The position numbers and the translations under genes were made by a program. Below the pieces are notes generated by a model. The model was not told the DNA's origin. It searched no databases and worked only from the letters and a program-made list of their open reading frames with translations. A DNA stretch of 32,428 nt from an uncultured Anaerolineales bacterium (GTDB lineage: Bacteria > Chloroflexota > Anaerolineae > UBA7937): assembly GCA_964514645.1 (NCBI GenBank), contig CAZERB010000001.1, forward strand, positions 1 to 32,428, in the 5' to 3' direction. The stretch's first letter is position 1. Each line of letters begins with the position of its first letter. Below are positions 20,463-29,987 of this stretch, one piece after another.

Positions 20463-22352
20463 CTACCTACTCTTCCCCTCCATATCGATGAGAACTCGGG
20501 CCACAGCGTCGATGGCCACTCTCTGCTTGCGGTAGAGGTCCGACTCGCTCATGGCCAAACGCTGGGCGATTTCCCTCATCCGCCAACCGCGGATGAACTT
20601 CATCTCCAAGATATTATAGAGTACCCACCCTCTGGCGGTGAGGCTCCTTTCCTCCTCTGGAGGCTTCAGGGCCTCGATAGCCCCTCGCAGGACCGCACGG
20701 AGAGCCTCAGTGGGAACATATCCGTTCTCTGCCAGGGCCCTCTGCACTATCCCCATCTTGAGGAGAGGGCTCTCTAATAGATTAGGGCCTCCCCAATAGT
20801 GAGCAAGAGCCTCTTTCACCACCTTATTGAAATCGGAAGCGTAGATGGGGCTCTCCTCCGGCGGAAAGACGGCGGAACCAACATAGCGGGGAGTGCTTCG
20901 CCAGCGTTGGATCGACTGGATCTCCGGCGCGATCTGGCTTAGTACCGCAAAGACCCCTTGCTGCAACTGCCGGTCTTCCAAGGCCAACTCCGCTTGGTGA
21001 ACCAGCATCCGCACCGTCTCCTCTTCCCTCTCCGTCAACTCCTCCTGCCTGGCCTCCACACCCAGTACCCCTAGTGTACCCTCCCGCGACTTCGTACGCA
21101 AGGGAAGGAGCCAGAAGCCCCCCTTATCTATAAAGCCCTGGCTTTCTCCTCCCTCAAGGGGCAAAGCGAGCAAACCATTTGGATCCTCCGACTCCAAGAA
21201 CGCATCGACACTCCTCCGAGAACCACAGAACGCCTCCAAATGGAGGCCATCTTCCCCGGGTGTGACTATGAAACCGGTACCAACACGCAAAAGATCGCAG
21301 AGAGCGGTAAGGATATTTTGCAAGAGTTCTTGCAGGTCGGTGGTGGTAAGGAGCCGATCCTCCAACTCCCGTATCCGAGCCACCTCTGCCCTATCCCGGC
21401 GGTAGGCCAGAAGATCGATAAGCGGCCTGGCGGCACTGATAGCGACCTGCAGGAGGACGATACCCAGCACCGTAGCGAAGATGAGGACCGTATCTCGAGG
21501 AAGGCCCAGGATGCTCTCCACCCGGGGTATCACCAGCATCAAGATGAGAAGGCAACTTCCCACCAAAGGGCCCCGGAGGAGGTAGTTTATTAGACTCCGC
21601 TTCACCACCCGGTCGGGCATCAGAACCCCATGATAGGCCACACTGTATCCCATCACCACGGTCATGATTGCGATACCCGCGCTCCCTACCAAGGATAAGA
21701 AGAGGATAAAGGTGGGAGAGAAGCGAGCAGGGAGGCTAGCCAAAAGAAGGTAAGGAAAAGCGCCCAAGGCGGGAGCGACGAAGGAGATGGTCAAGTAGGT
21801 CATCCGCCGTCGGGAAGCCGGGGTGAGGGTCCGGTGGCGGGCTCGAAGGGTGTTCAGAACCCCCCAACCGGTCACCAGGAAAAAGTAGAAAGCGAAGGCC
21901 CAGAAGAGAGGCCCAGCCCTGAAGTAGGTGACCCAAAGGGTATGCACACCATCCCGCACCACTAGAGGGGTTAAGATGGTGAGGGAGAAGAAAAGGGCCC
22001 CCAAAAGGTAACTGAAGATGACAAAACCCCGCCGCAGACGAGAGAAGGAGTTTGTGGTTCGAAGCAGCGCATCGGAGAAATGGAGGTAGGCGACGGGGAT
22101 GAAGGCTATCCCCAACCACTGAAACTTCAGCCAGAAGAACTTGGCAGAGGCGGTGCTCACGTTTAGGAGTATAACATCGGCAGCGTGGACGATAGTGACA
22201 AAGGCCAAAAGGGAAGAGAAAGAGCGGGCTACCGTATTGCGAAGGTTGTGAGTGAGGATATAGACCAGGAGTGAGAAGGCGAGTATGACATTGATAGAGG
22301 AGAGGATCAGGTTGCCGAAAGCCAAGACCCTCTCCAGCGTTAATTGCTCCAT
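20463..22352 (-). CDS. Polytopic membrane protein (about 9 TM, HisKA_7TM-like) fused to a GAF-like domain and a C-terminal sigma-70 region-4-like HTH
   Basis: The N-terminal 300 aa are almost entirely hydrophobic helices. The middle region TTDLQELLQNILTALCDLLRVGTGFIV...GTLGVLGVEA is GAF-like. The C-terminus YNILEMKFIRGWRMREIAQRLAMSESDLYRKQRVAIDAVARVL is r4/LuxR-like. No HisKA/HATPase motifs. Its ATG overlaps the cdsA stop (TGATG). Confidence 0.8.
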   Translation of the reverse strand: MEQLTLERVLAFGNLILSSINVILAFSLLVYILTHNLRNTVARSFSSLLAFVTIVHAADVILLNVSTASAKFFWLKFQWLGIAFIPVAYLHFSDALLRTTNSFSRLRRGFVIFSYLLGALFFSLTILTPLVVRDGVHTLWVTYFRAGPLFWAFAFYFFLVTGWGVLNTLRARHRTLTPASRRRMTYLTISFVAPALGAFPYLLLASLPARFSPTFILFLSLVGSAGIAIMTVVMGYSVAYHGVLMPDRVVKRSLINYLLRGPLVGSCLLILMLVIPRVESILGLPRDTVLIFATVLGIVLLQVAISAARPLIDLLAYRRDRAEVARIRELEDRLLTTTDLQELLQNILTALCDLLRVGTGFIVTPGEDGLHLEAFCGSRRSVDAFLESEDPNGLLALPLEGGESQGFIDKGGFWLLPLRTKSREGTLGVLGVEARQEELTEREEETVRMLVHQAELALEDRQLQQGVFAVLSQIAPEIQSIQRWRSTPRYVGSAVFPPEESPIYASDFNKVVKEALAHYWGGPNLLESPLLKMGIVQRALAENGYVPTEALRAVLRGAIEALKPPEEERSLTARGWVLYNILEMKFIRGWRMREIAQRLAMSESDLYRKQRVAIDAVARVLIDMEGKSR

Positions 22353-26800: not shown

Positions 26801-26828
26801 TTGAACTTGGAGAAAGGTATGTTATACT
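26801..26828 (+). promoter_or_regulatory. Probable promoter of the Trm112-like gene, back-to-back with the rpsB promoter
   Basis: TTGAAC (26801-26806), 16-nt spacer ending in TGT (extended -10), TATACT (26823-26828). GGGAGG SD and ATG 26849 follow. Confidence 0.5.
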
Positions 26829-26848
26829 ATCTGCCGAAGGGAGGCGAA

Positions 26849-27049
26849 ATGGTCAGCAAGGATCTTCTGGAGATACTCGTCTGCCCAGCCTGCAAGACAA
26901 AGGTGGAACTGGTTAGGGGTGCTTGGCTCGTCTGCCAGAACGAGCAGTGCCGCCGCAAATACCCCATTCGAGACGACATCCCCATTATGCTCATCGAGGA
27001 GGGGGATAAGTACATCGATGTCCCGGTGGAGGAACTGGGAACCTCGTAG
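26849..27049 (+). CDS. Trm112/YcaR (UPF0434) family small zinc-ribbon-like protein
   Basis: MVSKDLLEILVCPACKTKVELV...CQNEQCRRKYPIRDDIPIMLIEEG. ATG 26849 has a GGGAGG SD. The ORF-track start at 26801 coincides with the promoter -35 and is rejected. Confidence 0.85.
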   Translation: MVSKDLLEILVCPACKTKVELVRGAWLVCQNEQCRRKYPIRDDIPIMLIEEGDKYIDVPVEELGTS

Positions 27050-27272: not shown

Positions 27273-27301
27273 TTGTCAAGGCTTCACAAAGGTGTTATAA
27301 T
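27273..27301 (+). promoter_or_regulatory. Sigma-70-type promoter of the pseudo-receiver gene
   Basis: TTGTCA (27273-27278), 17-nt spacer ending in TGT (extended -10), TATAAT (27296-27301). AGGAGCCGGGAG SD lies before ATG 27364. Confidence 0.55.
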
Positions 27302-27363
27302 CAATTTAACATCTCTCTTTCATAAGATGGGTTGAAGGTTAAAGCCTTCTTAGGAGCCGGGAG

Positions 27364-28938
27364 ATGGCCAGAAAGATAGTTATCCTCGATGACCGGTCGG
27401 ATATTCTGGGCTTCCTCCTCGACCAGGTGTTAAAACCCAGCGGCTACGAAACGCTTGTCGCCAAAGACACCGAGGAAGGCCTACACAAAGGTCTATGGGA
27501 AAACCCAGACCTCATCATCCTGGCTTCCCTGTTCCTCTCCGCCTCCACTTTAGCCATCCATAGGACCATCCAATCCAGGTTGCCCGACATACCGGTGATC
27601 ATCACCGCCTCCTACGGCTCCCGGGAGTTGGTAGAGGAAGCCCTCAATCAGGGGGTGAGGAGTTGCCTCCTCAAGCCTTTCACCGCGGAGGAGGTAAAGG
27701 AGGCCATCGAGGGGACTCTGAAAGGGGCACCAGAGAAGGAAACCCTTGCAAAGAGGGTAGGGGAAGAGAAGATCGCTCCCCCTAGAAAAGTGGTCCCGAA
27801 AGCCGGCCATGTTCACGCTATCGGGAAATCTATCATCTCCGTCCTGGAGATGGAAAAGGTCCTCGCCCGCATCGTGGAGGCAGCCATCTACCTGACTGCT
27901 GCCGATGAAGGCTCTCTACTTCTAGTAGAGGGAGAAGATCGATTCAAGGTCAGGGCGGCAAAGGCTCGAGGGGAGAGGTATGCTCGTCCTCTGCAAAAGG
28001 TGGTTGAAGACAGAATCGCCACTCAGGTAGTAAGTATGGGCAAGCCGCAGAGGCAAAGAGGTCCCCGGGAGCACGAGTGGAGCGAGATGAAAACGGGCCA
28101 TCTTGTGGAGCACCTCTTATATGTGCCCCTCATGGCAAGAAATGAAGTCATCGCTATCCTTTGCCTCTTCAATAGGGATGCCGGCCGACCTTTCCTTGAG
28201 AGCGATCTGGACAACCTAGTGGCCTTAGCCGATTATGCCGCCACCGCCCTCCAGAACGCCCAACTCTTCGAAAACCTCCTCCAAGGCTATGAAGATCTGA
28301 GACAAATCCAAGAGCGGGAAACGCCTCAACAACCCCCCTGGGGTATAGAGAGGAGAAAGGGAGAGCGGAGGGTCGAAGAAAGGCGTAAGGGAGAGCGGAG
28401 GGTCAAAGAAAGGCGGCAAGAGGAACGCCGAGTGGCCGAAAGAAGGCAAGGAGAAAGTCCTGAGAGCCTCCAAGTGGAGCGTAGACAAGGGAAAAGGAGA
28501 AGGGAAGAGAGACGGCAGGCGGAAAGAAGAGAGGAGGAACGGCGAAAGGGAGATAGGCGGCAAGCGGAACGGCGAAAGGGAGAACGAAGGGCCGATCTCC
28601 CCTGGGCCGAGGCCAGCGAATCAGAGGAAGCCAAAACAGCGTCCATCCATGAAGAGAGTCTTTTAGATGAAACAAGGAGGTCAGAGGTGGCTGAGAAGTT
28701 AGTGGGAAGGGTAACTCACTACTACAGCCGGATCGGCGTGGTCGTAGTGGAGGTCACCGACACCCTAAAGGTGGGGGATACCATCCACATCAAAGGCGGC
28801 ATCCGCGACTTCGAGCAAACGGTCGACTCCATGGAGATCGAGCACCAGAATGTGGAGGTGGCTACCAAGGGACAGTCGATCGGGCTCAAGGTTATAGAGA
28901 AGGTGCGGGAAAACGACCTGGTGTATAAGGTCGAGTAG
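27364..28938 (+). CDS. Multidomain regulator: receiver-like domain lacking the phospho-acceptor Asp, a GAF domain, an Arg/Glu-rich decapeptide repeat region, and a C-terminal EF-Tu-domain-2-like beta-barrel
   Basis: REC-like IVILDDRSD...DLIILASLFLSAST (Ala where CheY has D57)...VIITAS...LLKPF. GAF LEMEKVLARIVEAAIYLTAADEGSLLLVE...LLYVPLMARNEVIAILCLFNR. Eight ERRxGERRxx units. C-terminus VGRVTHYYSRIGVVVVEVTDTLKVGDTIHIKGGIRDFEQTVDSMEIEHQNVEVATKGQSIGLKV. Confidence 0.85.
   Translation: MARKIVILDDRSDILGFLLDQVLKPSGYETLVAKDTEEGLHKGLWENPDLIILASLFLSASTLAIHRTIQSRLPDIPVIITASYGSRELVEEALNQGVRSCLLKPFTAEEVKEAIEGTLKGAPEKETLAKRVGEEKIAPPRKVVPKAGHVHAIGKSIISVLEMEKVLARIVEAAIYLTAADEGSLLLVEGEDRFKVRAAKARGERYARPLQKVVEDRIATQVVSMGKPQRQRGPREHEWSEMKTGHLVEHLLYVPLMARNEVIAILCLFNRDAGRPFLESDLDNLVALADYAATALQNAQLFENLLQGYEDLRQIQERETPQQPPWGIERRKGERRVEERRKGERRVKERRQEERRVAERRQGESPESLQVERRQGKRRREERRQAERREEERRKGDRRQAERRKGERRADLPWAEASESEEAKTASIHEESLLDETRRSEVAEKLVGRVTHYYSRIGVVVVEVTDTLKVGDTIHIKGGIRDFEQTVDSMEIEHQNVEVATKGQSIGLKVIEKVRENDLVYKVE
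28348..28590 (+). repeat. Eight tandem, in-frame ~30-nt repeats encoding ERR(K/Q)(G/E/A)(E/D/K)RRxx
   Basis: Units 1 and 2 (gagaggagaaagggagagcggagggtcgaa / gaaaggcgtaagggagagcggagggtcaaa) are 26/30 identical. Later units are more diverged, and one carries a 3-codon insertion (GESPESLQV). Confidence 0.9.
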
Positions 28939-29007
28939 CAAGGGAGCGGCCCTCGCACTTTCCCCTACTCAGGGGCTTAGTGCATTGCTCTCTGTTCATA
29001 AAAGCAA

Positions 29008-29047
29008 AGCCCCTTCAGTGAGAGGCTGCAAGGGGCTATTGATTTTA
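29008..29047 (+). terminator. Probable rho-independent terminator after the pseudo-receiver gene
   Basis: AGCCCCTT (29008-29015) pairs with AAGGGGCT (29030-29037), 8 bp with a 14-nt loop, followed by ATTGATTTTAT. Confidence 0.5.
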
Positions 29048-29069
29048 TGTATAGGAGATAGGTAATAAC

Positions 29070-29987
29070 TTGCGTGCCTATAAGGTCCCCCAGGCTGCTA
29101 TCGTTCTCTTACTCCTCACTGGGGTCAGCGTAGCCCTTTGGGCCCTGCTGACACCCTCAGCCGCCACAGGGTTATTACAGGTCACGTTCCTTGATGTCGG
29201 CCAGGGAGATGCCGCTTGGATTAAGACTCCCGATGGCTGGGATATCCTCATCGATGGAGGTAAAAAGAGCGCGGGGCCAGGCCTCCTCTCCTACCTCCAG
29301 AGCCAGGAGGTGACGGAGATAGAGGTTCTGGTGCTCAGCCACCCTGATGCCGATCATGTGGGAGGTTTTATCACAATCCTTGAGAATATGGATGTCGGCA
29401 AGGCCCTCCTCAACTGCCAGCGTACTGAAACCGACACCTATAAGGAGTTCGAAACCCTCCTAGTAGCGAAAGAGGTCATAACCACCTGTGTTCGAGATGG
29501 GCACAACTTCACTTGGGGGGCGTATATCACCGCATCCGCTGTCAACCCCGCTGAGCCCCTCATGTCAGGCACTAACAACAACTCCGTTGTCTTGCGCGTC
29601 TCCCACGGCACCATAGACTTTCTATTCACCGGAGATATCGAATCGGAGGCTGAGGCCCGAATCCTGGACAGAGGCCCCATCATTGAAGCGGAAATCCTCA
29701 AGGTAGCCCATCATGGCAGCGGCTCCTCGTCGACCGCTCTCTTTCTGGCCCAAGTCGATCCAGAACTCGCCGTAATCTCAGTTGGCGCCTCGAACCCCTA
29801 TGGCCACCCTGACCCAGGAACCCTTGCCCGGCTACATGATGCCGGCGCCACCATCTACAGGACCGATCTCAATGGAACCATCGTGGTCACCACCGATGGC
29901 ACAACCTATTCGGTCGAACCGGAAACCTCCTATCTTCTTTATCTGCCCCTCGTTATGAAAGGCTGGCTGTCGATTCTGGACCCATAG
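29070..29987 (+). CDS. Secreted or membrane-anchored metallo-beta-lactamase-fold hydrolase of the ComEC/Rec2 C-terminal-domain type
   Basis: N-terminal hydrophobic helix AAIVLLLLTGVSVALWALL. LQVTFLDVGQGDAAWIKTPDGWDILIDGG, LVLSHPDADHVGG, LFTGDIESEAE and LKVAHHGSGSSS. TTG start with AGGAGA SD 11 nt upstream. Confidence 0.85.
   Translation: MRAYKVPQAAIVLLLLTGVSVALWALLTPSAATGLLQVTFLDVGQGDAAWIKTPDGWDILIDGGKKSAGPGLLSYLQSQEVTEIEVLVLSHPDADHVGGFITILENMDVGKALLNCQRTETDTYKEFETLLVAKEVITTCVRDGHNFTWGAYITASAVNPAEPLMSGTNNNSVVLRVSHGTIDFLFTGDIESEAEARILDRGPIIEAEILKVAHHGSGSSSTALFLAQVDPELAVISVGASNPYGHPDPGTLARLHDAGATIYRTDLNGTIVVTTDGTTYSVEPETSYLLYLPLVMKGWLSILDP

Follow-up and report, generated by a model that had tools for sequence, protein, structure and literature searches.

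The stretch of DNA analyzed here (the window) comprises 32,428 nucleotides of contig CAZERB010000001.1 from an uncultured Anaerolineales bacterium (assembly GCA_964514645.1; Chloroflexota, Anaerolineae, UBA7937). Toward its 3′ end lies an open reading frame (ORF) encoding a protein in which a receiver-like domain without phospho-acceptor aspartate (REC*), a GAF domain, a tract of Arg/Glu repeats (ERR), and a small β-barrel follow one another (Table 1). The barrel part coincides with a nested small gene that carries its own ribosome-binding site (RBS) and start codon. The long ORF is best read as a lineage-specific, in-frame fusion, arisen in Anaerolineales, of a sensor module and a pre-existing barrel. 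The conservation of the internal start suggests that the locus may supply the barrel in both a tethered and a free form.

A first-pass annotation of the window had described this ORF as a four-part regulator with its own strong promoter and terminator; the ORF was recovered at the same coordinates, and all the peptide strings quoted from it occur in its translation. The ratios of nonsynonymous to synonymous substitution rates (dN/dS) relative to five relatives are 0.21–0.30 for the receiver, 0.21–0.44 for the GAF domain, 0.22–0.38 for the ERR tract, and 0.18–0.25 for the barrel. Since all four parts lie between 0.18 and 0.44 and are thus under purifying selection, the ORF does not represent a chance reading frame. 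The strong promoter is evident as an extended −10 element of the sigma-70 type, and this block is still present 5′ of the gene in two relatives from which the REC-GAF region has been deleted (L005 and L019). The terminator stands on less even ground: a simple scan found none on the plus strand, but a strong hairpin folds downstream of the gene, which makes a terminator plausible, and this element is probably a bidirectional intrinsic one. The same hairpin was also scored as a minus-strand terminator, yet the genes on either side are both on the plus strand. No structured RNA or riboswitch was found at E ≤ 1 in an Rfam scan of the leader and the gene.

Scans with Pfam and NCBIfam detected no DNA-binding or enzymatic output domain, as had been noted before, and no single model spans the whole REC-GAF-ERR-barrel architecture. 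The NCBIfam matches are limited to the receiver level, which is shared by many response regulators, and lie far under the family cut-offs. A literature search likewise found no paper describing this architecture or the free barrel family. The earlier remark that the combination does not correspond to a described architecture is in line with these results.

Table 1. Positions of the fusion gene, its parts, and its surroundings in the window.
Feature	Position	Strand	Details
HisKA_7TM-region and GAF protein	20463–22352	−	629 aa; just past cdsA, which closes the rpsB-...-cdsA string
Trm112-like small zinc-ribbon gene	26801–27049	+	Upstream neighbor of the fusion gene
Sigma-70-type promoter	27273–27301	+	TTGTCA-17-TGnTATAAT; 11/12 matches; extended −10
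Shine-Dalgarno sequence	27352–27356	+	AGGAG; 7 nt 5′ of the long-ORF ATG; read from the sequence
Long ORF, REC*-GAF-ERR-barrel	27364–28938 (including stop codon)	+	524 aa; ATG start
Pseudo-receiver, residues 5–116	27376–27711	+	D9/D10 (DD), Ala54 (acceptor), Ala82 (T), Lys104 (K)
GAF domain, residues 162–298	27847–28257	+	A long helix follows, reaching about residue 318
Arg/Glu pentapeptide (ERR) tract, residues 329–409	28348–28590	+	14 [E/D]RR units (2 blocks, 7 units each); net charge +16
Junction linker, residues 410–441	28591–28686	+	Old gene tail plus intergenic spacer; codon E436 = GAA
Putative internal RBS and start	28674–28689	+	AAGGAGG (28674–28680), 6-nt spacer, GTG (28687–28689); would start the 83-aa barrel
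U32-C/EF-Tu-domain-II-like β-barrel, residues 442–524	28687–28938	+	83 aa; nested in-frame
Hairpin and U-rich tail (probable terminator)	29005–29048	.	Hairpin 29005–29041, then AUUUUAU; folding z = −3.9
Metallo-β-lactamase-fold gene	29070–29987	+	TTG start; downstream of the fusion gene

Receiver, GAF domain, and Arg/Glu tract

The N-terminal domain is matched by Response_reg (PF00072) with an E-value of 1e-10 and 42.2 bits against a curated cut-off of 30.2. Its AlphaFold2 (AF2) model consists of the alternating strands and helices of a (βα)5 fold, with predicted local distance difference test (pLDDT) values of about 80–90. A gapless alignment of the segment around Asp54 of Spo0F, LLDMKIPGMDG, with ILASLFLSAST of the window protein places Ala54 at the acceptor position, at the end of β3. 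The interval between Asp49 and Asp75 contains neither Asp nor Glu; therefore, no shifted acceptor is available, and this possibility was ruled out. The acceptor Asp is missing from all 16 aligned full-length fused homologs, which carry Ala or, in two cases, Thr instead, while a distant fusion (P0209) has Ser at this position and Gln at that of the conserved Lys. The nearest REC-GAF-kinase relatives retain a D..MPKM.G motif. The first-pass annotation had noted the missing Asp at the position of CheY Asp57, a point that the alignments bear out, and had listed an acidic pair, a Thr/Ser, and a Lys as kept. The pair Asp9/Asp10 in ILDD and Lys104 are indeed retained, but the conserved Thr is kept only loosely, because gapless alignments place Ala82 there, flanked by Thr81 and Ser83. 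Since the acceptor Asp is absent, canonical phosphotransfer by this receiver is excluded, which agrees with the earlier statement that the protein is not a conventional two-component output.

A 2025 analysis of bacterial pseudo-receivers described aspartate-less receivers (ALRs) as computationally recognized receivers without the D phosphorylation site, which are joined to rare output domains more often (PMC12632262). By the definitions of that work, the domain is classified from its sequence as a pseudo-receiver of the ALR subclass: it combines a PF00072 match and a confident (βα)5 model with a missing acceptor and drift of the other active-site residues. In contrast, the ALR architectures that we found described do not include a combination with a GAF domain, an Arg/Glu tract, and a nested gene for a small protein, and the term "GAF" is absent from the same analysis (PMC12632262).

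The protein might still act as a conventional response regulator if a non-canonical residue (a shifted Asp, Ser55, Thr81, or Ser83) were phosphorylated by a nearby 7TM-GAF protein or by another kinase. The Asp pair and Lys104 are kept in the window protein, Ser55, next to the acceptor position, is conserved in P0001–P0017, and the 7TM-GAF signaling gene is a conserved neighbor, held at the same position in L006 and L007. A functional link between this gene and the REC*-GAF gene is possible. However, the absence of acidic residues between Asp49 and Asp75 leaves no shifted Asp, and the divergent members exhibit changes of the DD pair to NE, of the Thr to Ala, and of the Lys to E, N, Y, or Q, a pattern that marks a loosened phosphotransfer chemistry. 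Furthermore, no HisKA or HATPase domain was detected in the 7TM-GAF protein in the domain scan. We regard such phosphorylation as highly improbable.

The second domain is matched by GAF_3, GAF_2, and GAF with E-values from 1e-13 to 8e-10 (PF13492, PF13185, and PF01590 at 52.1, 46.2, and 39.7 bits against cut-offs of 27, 28.6, and 22.4, respectively). Its AF2 model is confident, with pLDDT values of about 80–90, and its matches in the PDB are GAF domains of phosphodiesterases and of one HD-GYP-type phosphohydrolase.

The Arg/Glu tract follows a strict five-residue period with the unit x-[E/D]-R-R-x. The decapeptide repeats proposed earlier are thus not the unit, and the single 30-nt pair of decapeptide length reflects a recent DNA duplication. 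Arg accounts for 38% of the tract, and its net charge stands against −16 in the remaining protein. The number of units ranges from 3 to 17 among the homologs. AF2 predicts two long helices in this region with low confidence (pLDDT 42–60). A salt-bridged single α-helix of the ER/K type was considered for the tract, but the charge pairing does not significantly exceed what the composition yields: opposite charges at i+3/i+4 number 44, and shuffled sequences average 37.2 ± 4.3 (p about 0.07). The 81 residues include 6 Gly, about one per 10 residues, and 1 Pro. Short-read assemblies often break or contain a gap at this tract, as in L099–L101 and in L002 (GCA_003453555.1), which has a run of N inside it. 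Such breaks leave "partial" REC-GAF genes and lone 83-aa calls in public records.

Age of the fusion and states of the locus

The search for the same architecture in other genomes, which the first-pass annotation had suggested, was run over 5.8 billion proteins and returned 17 homologous clusters (P0001–P0017, 48–97% identity). Fifteen of the clusters are full-length, P0014 and P0015 are truncated, and all 17 derive from Anaerolineae/Chloroflexi metagenome bins. The next-nearest relatives are REC-GAF-HisKA-HATPase kinases. P0209, a REC-GAF-barrel fusion of 451 aa that emerged from the profile search for barrels described below, is 38% identical to the window protein in the REC-GAF part and 45% in the barrel, and its linker is unrelated and contains no ERR repeats. 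The association of REC-GAF with the barrel is therefore older than the expansion of the repeats, which are best described as a lineage-specific elaboration of the linker. Across the homologs, down to 38% identity, the fused frame has been maintained through in-frame insertions and deletions. The REC-GAF-barrel fusion is confined to a few uncultured Anaerolineales.

The gene occupies a recurrent locus. The rpsB-tsf-pyrH-frr genes of Anaerolineales lie on one strand, and the Trm112-like gene followed by the barrel or fusion gene lies divergently on the other; the Trm112-like gene is the upstream neighbor in every Anaerolineales locus examined. The P0209 locus (L098) again contains S2 and Trm112; in its region 1148–2096, a class I S-adenosylmethionine (SAM) methyltransferase separates Trm112 from the fusion. 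This methyltransferase has no homolog in the window.

Within this common layout, four states of the locus were observed. In the first, shared by the window, L006–L009, and L018, the gene is a single long ORF. In the second, a GAA-to-TAA change at codon 436, found in four independent samples (L001–L004), splits it into a 430-aa REC-GAF-ERR product and the 83-aa barrel. In the third, two independent deletions (L005 and L019) have removed REC-GAF while sparing the promoter, the Shine-Dalgarno sequence, and the barrel. The L005 deletion also leaves the first ~10 codons, frameshifted, and the last repeat, and in L019 the leader is joined to an ERR remnant bearing TGA. The deleted L005 allele and the fused L007 allele come from the same metagenome (JGI 3300031877). 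In the fourth state, the same Trm112/rpsB position of a more distant Anaerolineales locus (L027) is taken by a free barrel that has an ATG and a Shine-Dalgarno sequence of its own, and no remnant of REC-GAF was found there. Lone 83-aa calls identical to the window barrel (P0039) were considered as a further biological split and rejected. Their three contigs start about 50–430 nt upstream of the barrel, the longer two immediately ahead of the repeats, and the frame is open to the contig edge in each.

The internal start is preserved through these changes. In the long frame, the AAGGAGG-GTG region reads TRRSEV, with GTG encoding Val442, and several close Chloroflexi relatives are annotated as separate 83-aa genes that begin at the equivalent codon. 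At the DNA level, AAGGAGG-N6-GTG is kept whether a relative is fused, split, or deleted, and also in L006 and L009 at ~50% identity, while the distant fusion locus L098 has AAGGAGG-N8-ATG in-frame at the first barrel codon. Two products are most likely, as the barrel has retained a Shine-Dalgarno sequence and a start codon of its own. This conservation supports, without proving, that a short isoform is made alongside the long one. Bacterial genes in which an in-frame internal start leads to two isoforms include those of IF2 (alpha and beta), CheA (long and short), and ClpB, and the internal Shine-Dalgarno sequence and start of the window gene would likewise yield a short C-terminal isoform. 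Unlike in these cases, the short isoform would correspond to an ancestral stand-alone gene captured by fusion, and its dual expression is deduced from the sequence. The earlier description of a single four-part gene accordingly needs amendment: the four parts are present, but the barrel is a pre-existing, independently startable, and conserved small gene, and split and deleted relatives occur. The synonymous divergence (dS) of the barrel (28687–28935) relative to L009 and L006 is about 0.58–0.59, far below the 1.3–1.6 of the receiver and GAF domains in the same gene pairs. Constraint at the nucleotide level, recombination, or a codon bias that stems from strong expression of the short form are possible causes.

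The same states bear on whether the join matters at all. Were the fused frame a tolerated read-through, REC*-GAF-ERR would be an independent regulator, the barrel would work only as a free 83-aa protein, and the connection between them would be neutral. Such a situation would agree with the split lineage, in which one nonsense change, sampled four times, separates the parts and REC-GAF-ERR is still under purifying selection, and with the two independent deletions that spare the barrel. It would also agree with the conserved internal start and with the junction linker, whose 31 codons evolve nearly neutrally among close relatives (dN/dS 0.69–0.81). Nevertheless, all full-length members of the 17 clusters keep the fused frame, as does P0209 with its completely different linker, and all changes in linker length are in-frame; a neutral join should have gained stops or frameshifts far more often over such divergence. 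Lasting adjacency at this depth would imply a functional link even if the two parts were translated separately. A recent accidental read-through is further argued against because the internal RBS and start are kept in three deeply separated fusion lineages. A merely tolerated join is, in our judgment, unlikely.

Fold, distribution, and contexts of the barrel

The barrel alone is matched by Peptidase_U32_C (PF16325) over positions 5–82 of its 83 residues at 26.2 bits, and within the full protein at 21.5 bits, in both cases below the cut-off of 28.2; some relatives in the barrel family exceed it (e.g., P0182 at 31.3 bits). The match to GTP_EFTU_D2 (PF03144) is also below threshold, at 21.7 bits against 30.3. 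The domain scan of the 524-aa protein found neither the U32 catalytic domain (PF01136) nor a GTPase domain. An AF2 model built from a 58-sequence alignment is all-β with a pLDDT of 96.5, and this model was used for the comparisons. In the full-length model the barrel is poor because of the shallow alignment, and that model was not used for it. The top Foldseek matches in the PDB are the C-terminal domains of a Geobacillus U32 "peptidase" (4HE5/4HE6), with TM-scores of 0.86–0.92 and root-mean-square deviations (rmsd) of 0.9–1.0 Å over 79–83 residues at about 20% sequence identity. Domain II of EF-Tu, EF1A, and IF2 follows with TM-scores of 0.6–0.8, rmsd values of 2.2–4.6 Å, and a probability of 1.0. 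The resemblance to EF-Tu domain 2 proposed in the first-pass annotation therefore holds for the superfamily, but the U32 C-terminal domain is structurally closer.

Sequence comparison gives a complementary picture. A PDB search with the barrel sequence alone returned no significant match, and a profile search gave weak matches to EF1A, eIF5B, and Pbp11. The profile alignment pairs SMQIEH...GQSIG of the barrel with SIEMHH...GDNIG of archaeal EF1A domain II (E 1e-3), a stretch that would correspond to the region of EF-Tu domain II contacting the tRNA 3′ end. The window protein nonetheless differs from the EF-Tu/EF1A/IF2 domains in its poorer structural fit, the lack of a GTPase domain, and a Pfam score well under the cut-off. 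From the U32 C-terminal domain, which occurs in TrhP and RlhA-type RNA hydroxylases and shares a nearly identical fold, it differs in its sub-threshold match, its low identity, and the absence of an attached U32 catalytic domain. The residues that are invariant in the barrel family (H11, G30-D31, G37, S48, I51-E52-H53, G62, and G66) are all present and correspond to H452, G471, D472, G478, S489, I492, E493, H494, G503, and G507 of the window protein.

Barrels of this family are widespread as free proteins. When the last 87 residues were searched alone, 822 matches were obtained, of which the best 120 are all 78–124 aa long and 57–99% identical. Their source names include "translation elongation factor-like protein," "putative protease," and "EF-1alpha," and many are archaeal. 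An exhaustive profile search over 1.84 billion representatives (50% clustering) assigned 2,288 representative clusters to the family at E ≤ 1e-10. The family occurs in at least 593 GTDB species genomes, both bacterial and archaeal. The bacterial hosts include Anaerolineae, Saccharibacteria and other groups of the Candidate Phyla Radiation, WOR-3, Nitrospirota, Omnitrophota, and Planctomycetota; the archaeal hosts include Bathyarchaeia, Hadarchaeota, Aenigmatarchaeota, and Woesearchaeota. Among the 80 best barrel loci, 78 are not REC-GAF fusions, and nearly all of the ORFs measure about 85–135 aa from stop to stop. The window barrel resembles the free barrels named as above in the NCBI and JGI records in its 58–99% identity over all 83 residues, its invariant positions, its Shine-Dalgarno sequence, and its start, and it shares the Trm112/rpsB locus with those of Anaerolineales. 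It differs in being in-frame with a 441-aa upstream sensor, whereas the others are mostly 85–100 aa long, or are polybasic-tailed, arranged in tandem, or fused to TIR domains.

The tandem and TIR-fused forms extend the range of arrangements. Six metagenomic proteins (P0160, P0161, P0163, P0164, P0177, and P0182) carry an N-terminal TIR_2 domain followed by two tandem barrel copies, and some of them also have ThsB-like matches, which suggests that the barrel can serve as a binding or sensor module in defense-type TIR proteins. Two other Anaerolineae loci (L022, 3442–3976; L023, 3714–4249) contain two adjacent barrel copies, about 48–65% identical to the window barrel. A second Anaerolineae barrel type (L010–L011 and L021), 72–75% identical, adjoins a gene for a LiaF-like membrane protein. 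In L010, which shares its source metagenome with L005 and L007, the opposite flank is occupied by a radical-SAM/HHH gene.

In a census at 77 barrel loci, which covered the closest ORFs on either side of the barrel, GatD was counted 11 times, radical-SAM methylthiotransferases of the MiaB/MtaB type 11 times, class II Asp/Asn/Lys-tRNA synthetases 6 times, and Mur ligases 6 times. MnmA-like (5), ThiI-like (4), and NFACT-R_2 (5) matches were also counted, and these may share ORFs. The class II tRNA synthetase lies directly upstream on the same strand in a WOR-3 locus (L050), and deoxyhypusine synthase lies beside the barrel in one Hadesarchaeon. A free barrel follows archease-RtcB by 13 nt in L012–L014 (4001–4255), and in the Bathyarchaeia loci L015–L017 (4001–4267) the barrel precedes GatD-GatE by about 130–160 nt; both arrangements look operonic. 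At least five distinct neighborhoods linked to tRNA or translation recur across phyla, besides the Trm112/rpsB-tsf-frr locus of Anaerolineales. N-terminal extensions of at least 25 aa are present on 73 of 136 single-barrel representatives; 50 of these 73 are strongly polybasic and 3 are acidic. The +16 ERR tract fits this recurring arrangement of a polycation followed by a barrel, though it is also rich in Glu. Together, the neighborhoods and the recurrent polybasic tails point to a link of the barrel with tRNA or translation. The tails of P0173, P0190, P0204, P0206, P0215, P0225, P0231, P0277, and about 40 more consist of 40–130 residues of nearly pure Lys/Arg at the N-terminus and recall those of histone H1 or ribosomal proteins.

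A barrel that does not bind RNA has to be weighed here as well. It would then be a small-ligand, metal, or protein–protein module, such as an accessory subunit similar to the C-terminal domain of the U32 radical-type hydroxylases, the ERR tract would form a charged helical spacer, and REC*-GAF would regulate an enzyme partner. The best structural match, with an rmsd of about 1 Å, is that very domain, and the invariant H11, D31, S48, E52, and H53 resemble a ligand or metal site. The net acidic core, the tandem barrels behind TIR domains as possible sensor or binding modules, and the AF2 prediction of two long helices for the ERR tract are also compatible with it. On the other side, no U32 catalytic gene is among the 25 most frequent neighbor families of the census, and polybasic tails, which are usual for nucleic-acid-binding proteins, recur on the free barrels. 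Furthermore, the S-M-Q/E-I-E-H element and the G-Q-S-I-G element align to domain II of EF1A, and the charge pattern of the ERR tract, interrupted by Gly about every 10 residues, is no better than that of shuffled sequences. These considerations make the non-RNA barrel and its enzyme-regulating sensor doubtful.

Among free-standing barrels of this general type, only Pbp11 of Pyrococcus abyssi (7ANU), a protein of ~90 aa with an EF-Tu-domain-II-type fold, has been studied. Its tRNA binding has been shown and needs a flexible N-terminal tail, and ribosomal and tRNA-processing proteins were recovered with it in pull-downs (PMC9540759). Pbp11 occurs in Thermococcales only and also binds PAN (PMC9540759), an activator of the archaeal proteasome that bacteria lack. 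The flexible tail and barrel of Pbp11 parallel the charged tract and barrel of the window protein. In contrast, the relation between the two is marginal (Q9UZY3; profile E 0.011, 19 bits; Foldseek TM-score 0.65, E 8e-4, 26% identity), and they are best placed in separate families.

A tentative mechanism and its implications

On balance, we tentatively favor a lineage-specific fusion that acts as a ligand-sensing, two-isoform tether for an RNA- or tRNA-associated barrel, a reading that we hold plausible while falling short of considering it probable. One gene would give the barrel twice, tethered within the 524-aa product and free as a protein of 83 aa. The barrel would bind RNA or a ligand of the translation apparatus, with the end of a tRNA or an enzyme that handles tRNA as the most plausible target, and the ERR tract would confer non-specific RNA affinity or reach, like the polybasic tails of the free barrels. 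A ligand at the GAF domain, a partner at the pseudo-receiver, or both may alter the availability of the tethered barrel. The balance between regulated and free barrel would then be set by the GAF/pseudo-receiver input, with the internal start supplying the free form.

Several observations weigh against this tether model. Close relatives have lost or uncoupled REC-GAF on at least three occasions, and, taken together with the linker dN/dS of about 0.7–0.8, this indicates that tethering is dispensable. The use of the internal start, and with it the short isoform, is a step that we infer from sequence conservation. Glu makes up 25% of the ERR tract, unlike the pure Lys/Arg tails of free barrels; the repeats are missing from the oldest fusion, P0209; and the barrel core is itself net acidic (+11/−14). 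The counts in the neighbor census are not phylogenetically independent, as all 11 GatD cases come from Bathyarchaeia. The N270-R-x5-F277-x3-D281 pattern of the GAF domain resembles the NKFDE motif of phosphodiesterase and cyclase GAF domains, and it specifies no ligand. Our literature searches found nothing functional for any member of the free barrel family and no demonstrated function for the U32 C-terminal domain.

A bolder extension of the tether model, which we consider improbable, would make the barrel a pan-prokaryotic, so far unrecognized "mini EF-Tu domain II" factor that binds tRNA at its 3′ or aminoacyl end and that an aspartate-less REC-GAF sensor has captured in this Anaerolineales clade. 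The gene would then provide the free factor constitutively, together with an RNA-tethered isoform that is gated by a metabolite. If true, the barrel would escort or shield tRNAs that are being amidated, thiolated, ligated, or charged, and small molecules would have a direct input to tRNA handling or translation without transcriptional control.

The domain types of the fusion are individually known, and pseudo-receivers with unusual outputs are a recognized but poorly understood class; the gene offers a concrete case for the question of how aspartate-less receivers signal. The fused, split, deleted, and barrel-only alleles form a natural series for asking what tethering adds. Since the fusion is confined to a few uncultured Anaerolineales, its direct impact is modest. 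It acts, however, as a "Rosetta stone" that links a ligand-sensing module to a very large family of small barrels, with thousands of 50%-identity clusters in many bacterial and archaeal phyla and about 60% identity across the domain boundary, and it hints that barrel function is under small-molecule control in Anaerolineales. The main value of the fusion lies in the clues it offers to how a very widespread but unstudied small protein works and is regulated.

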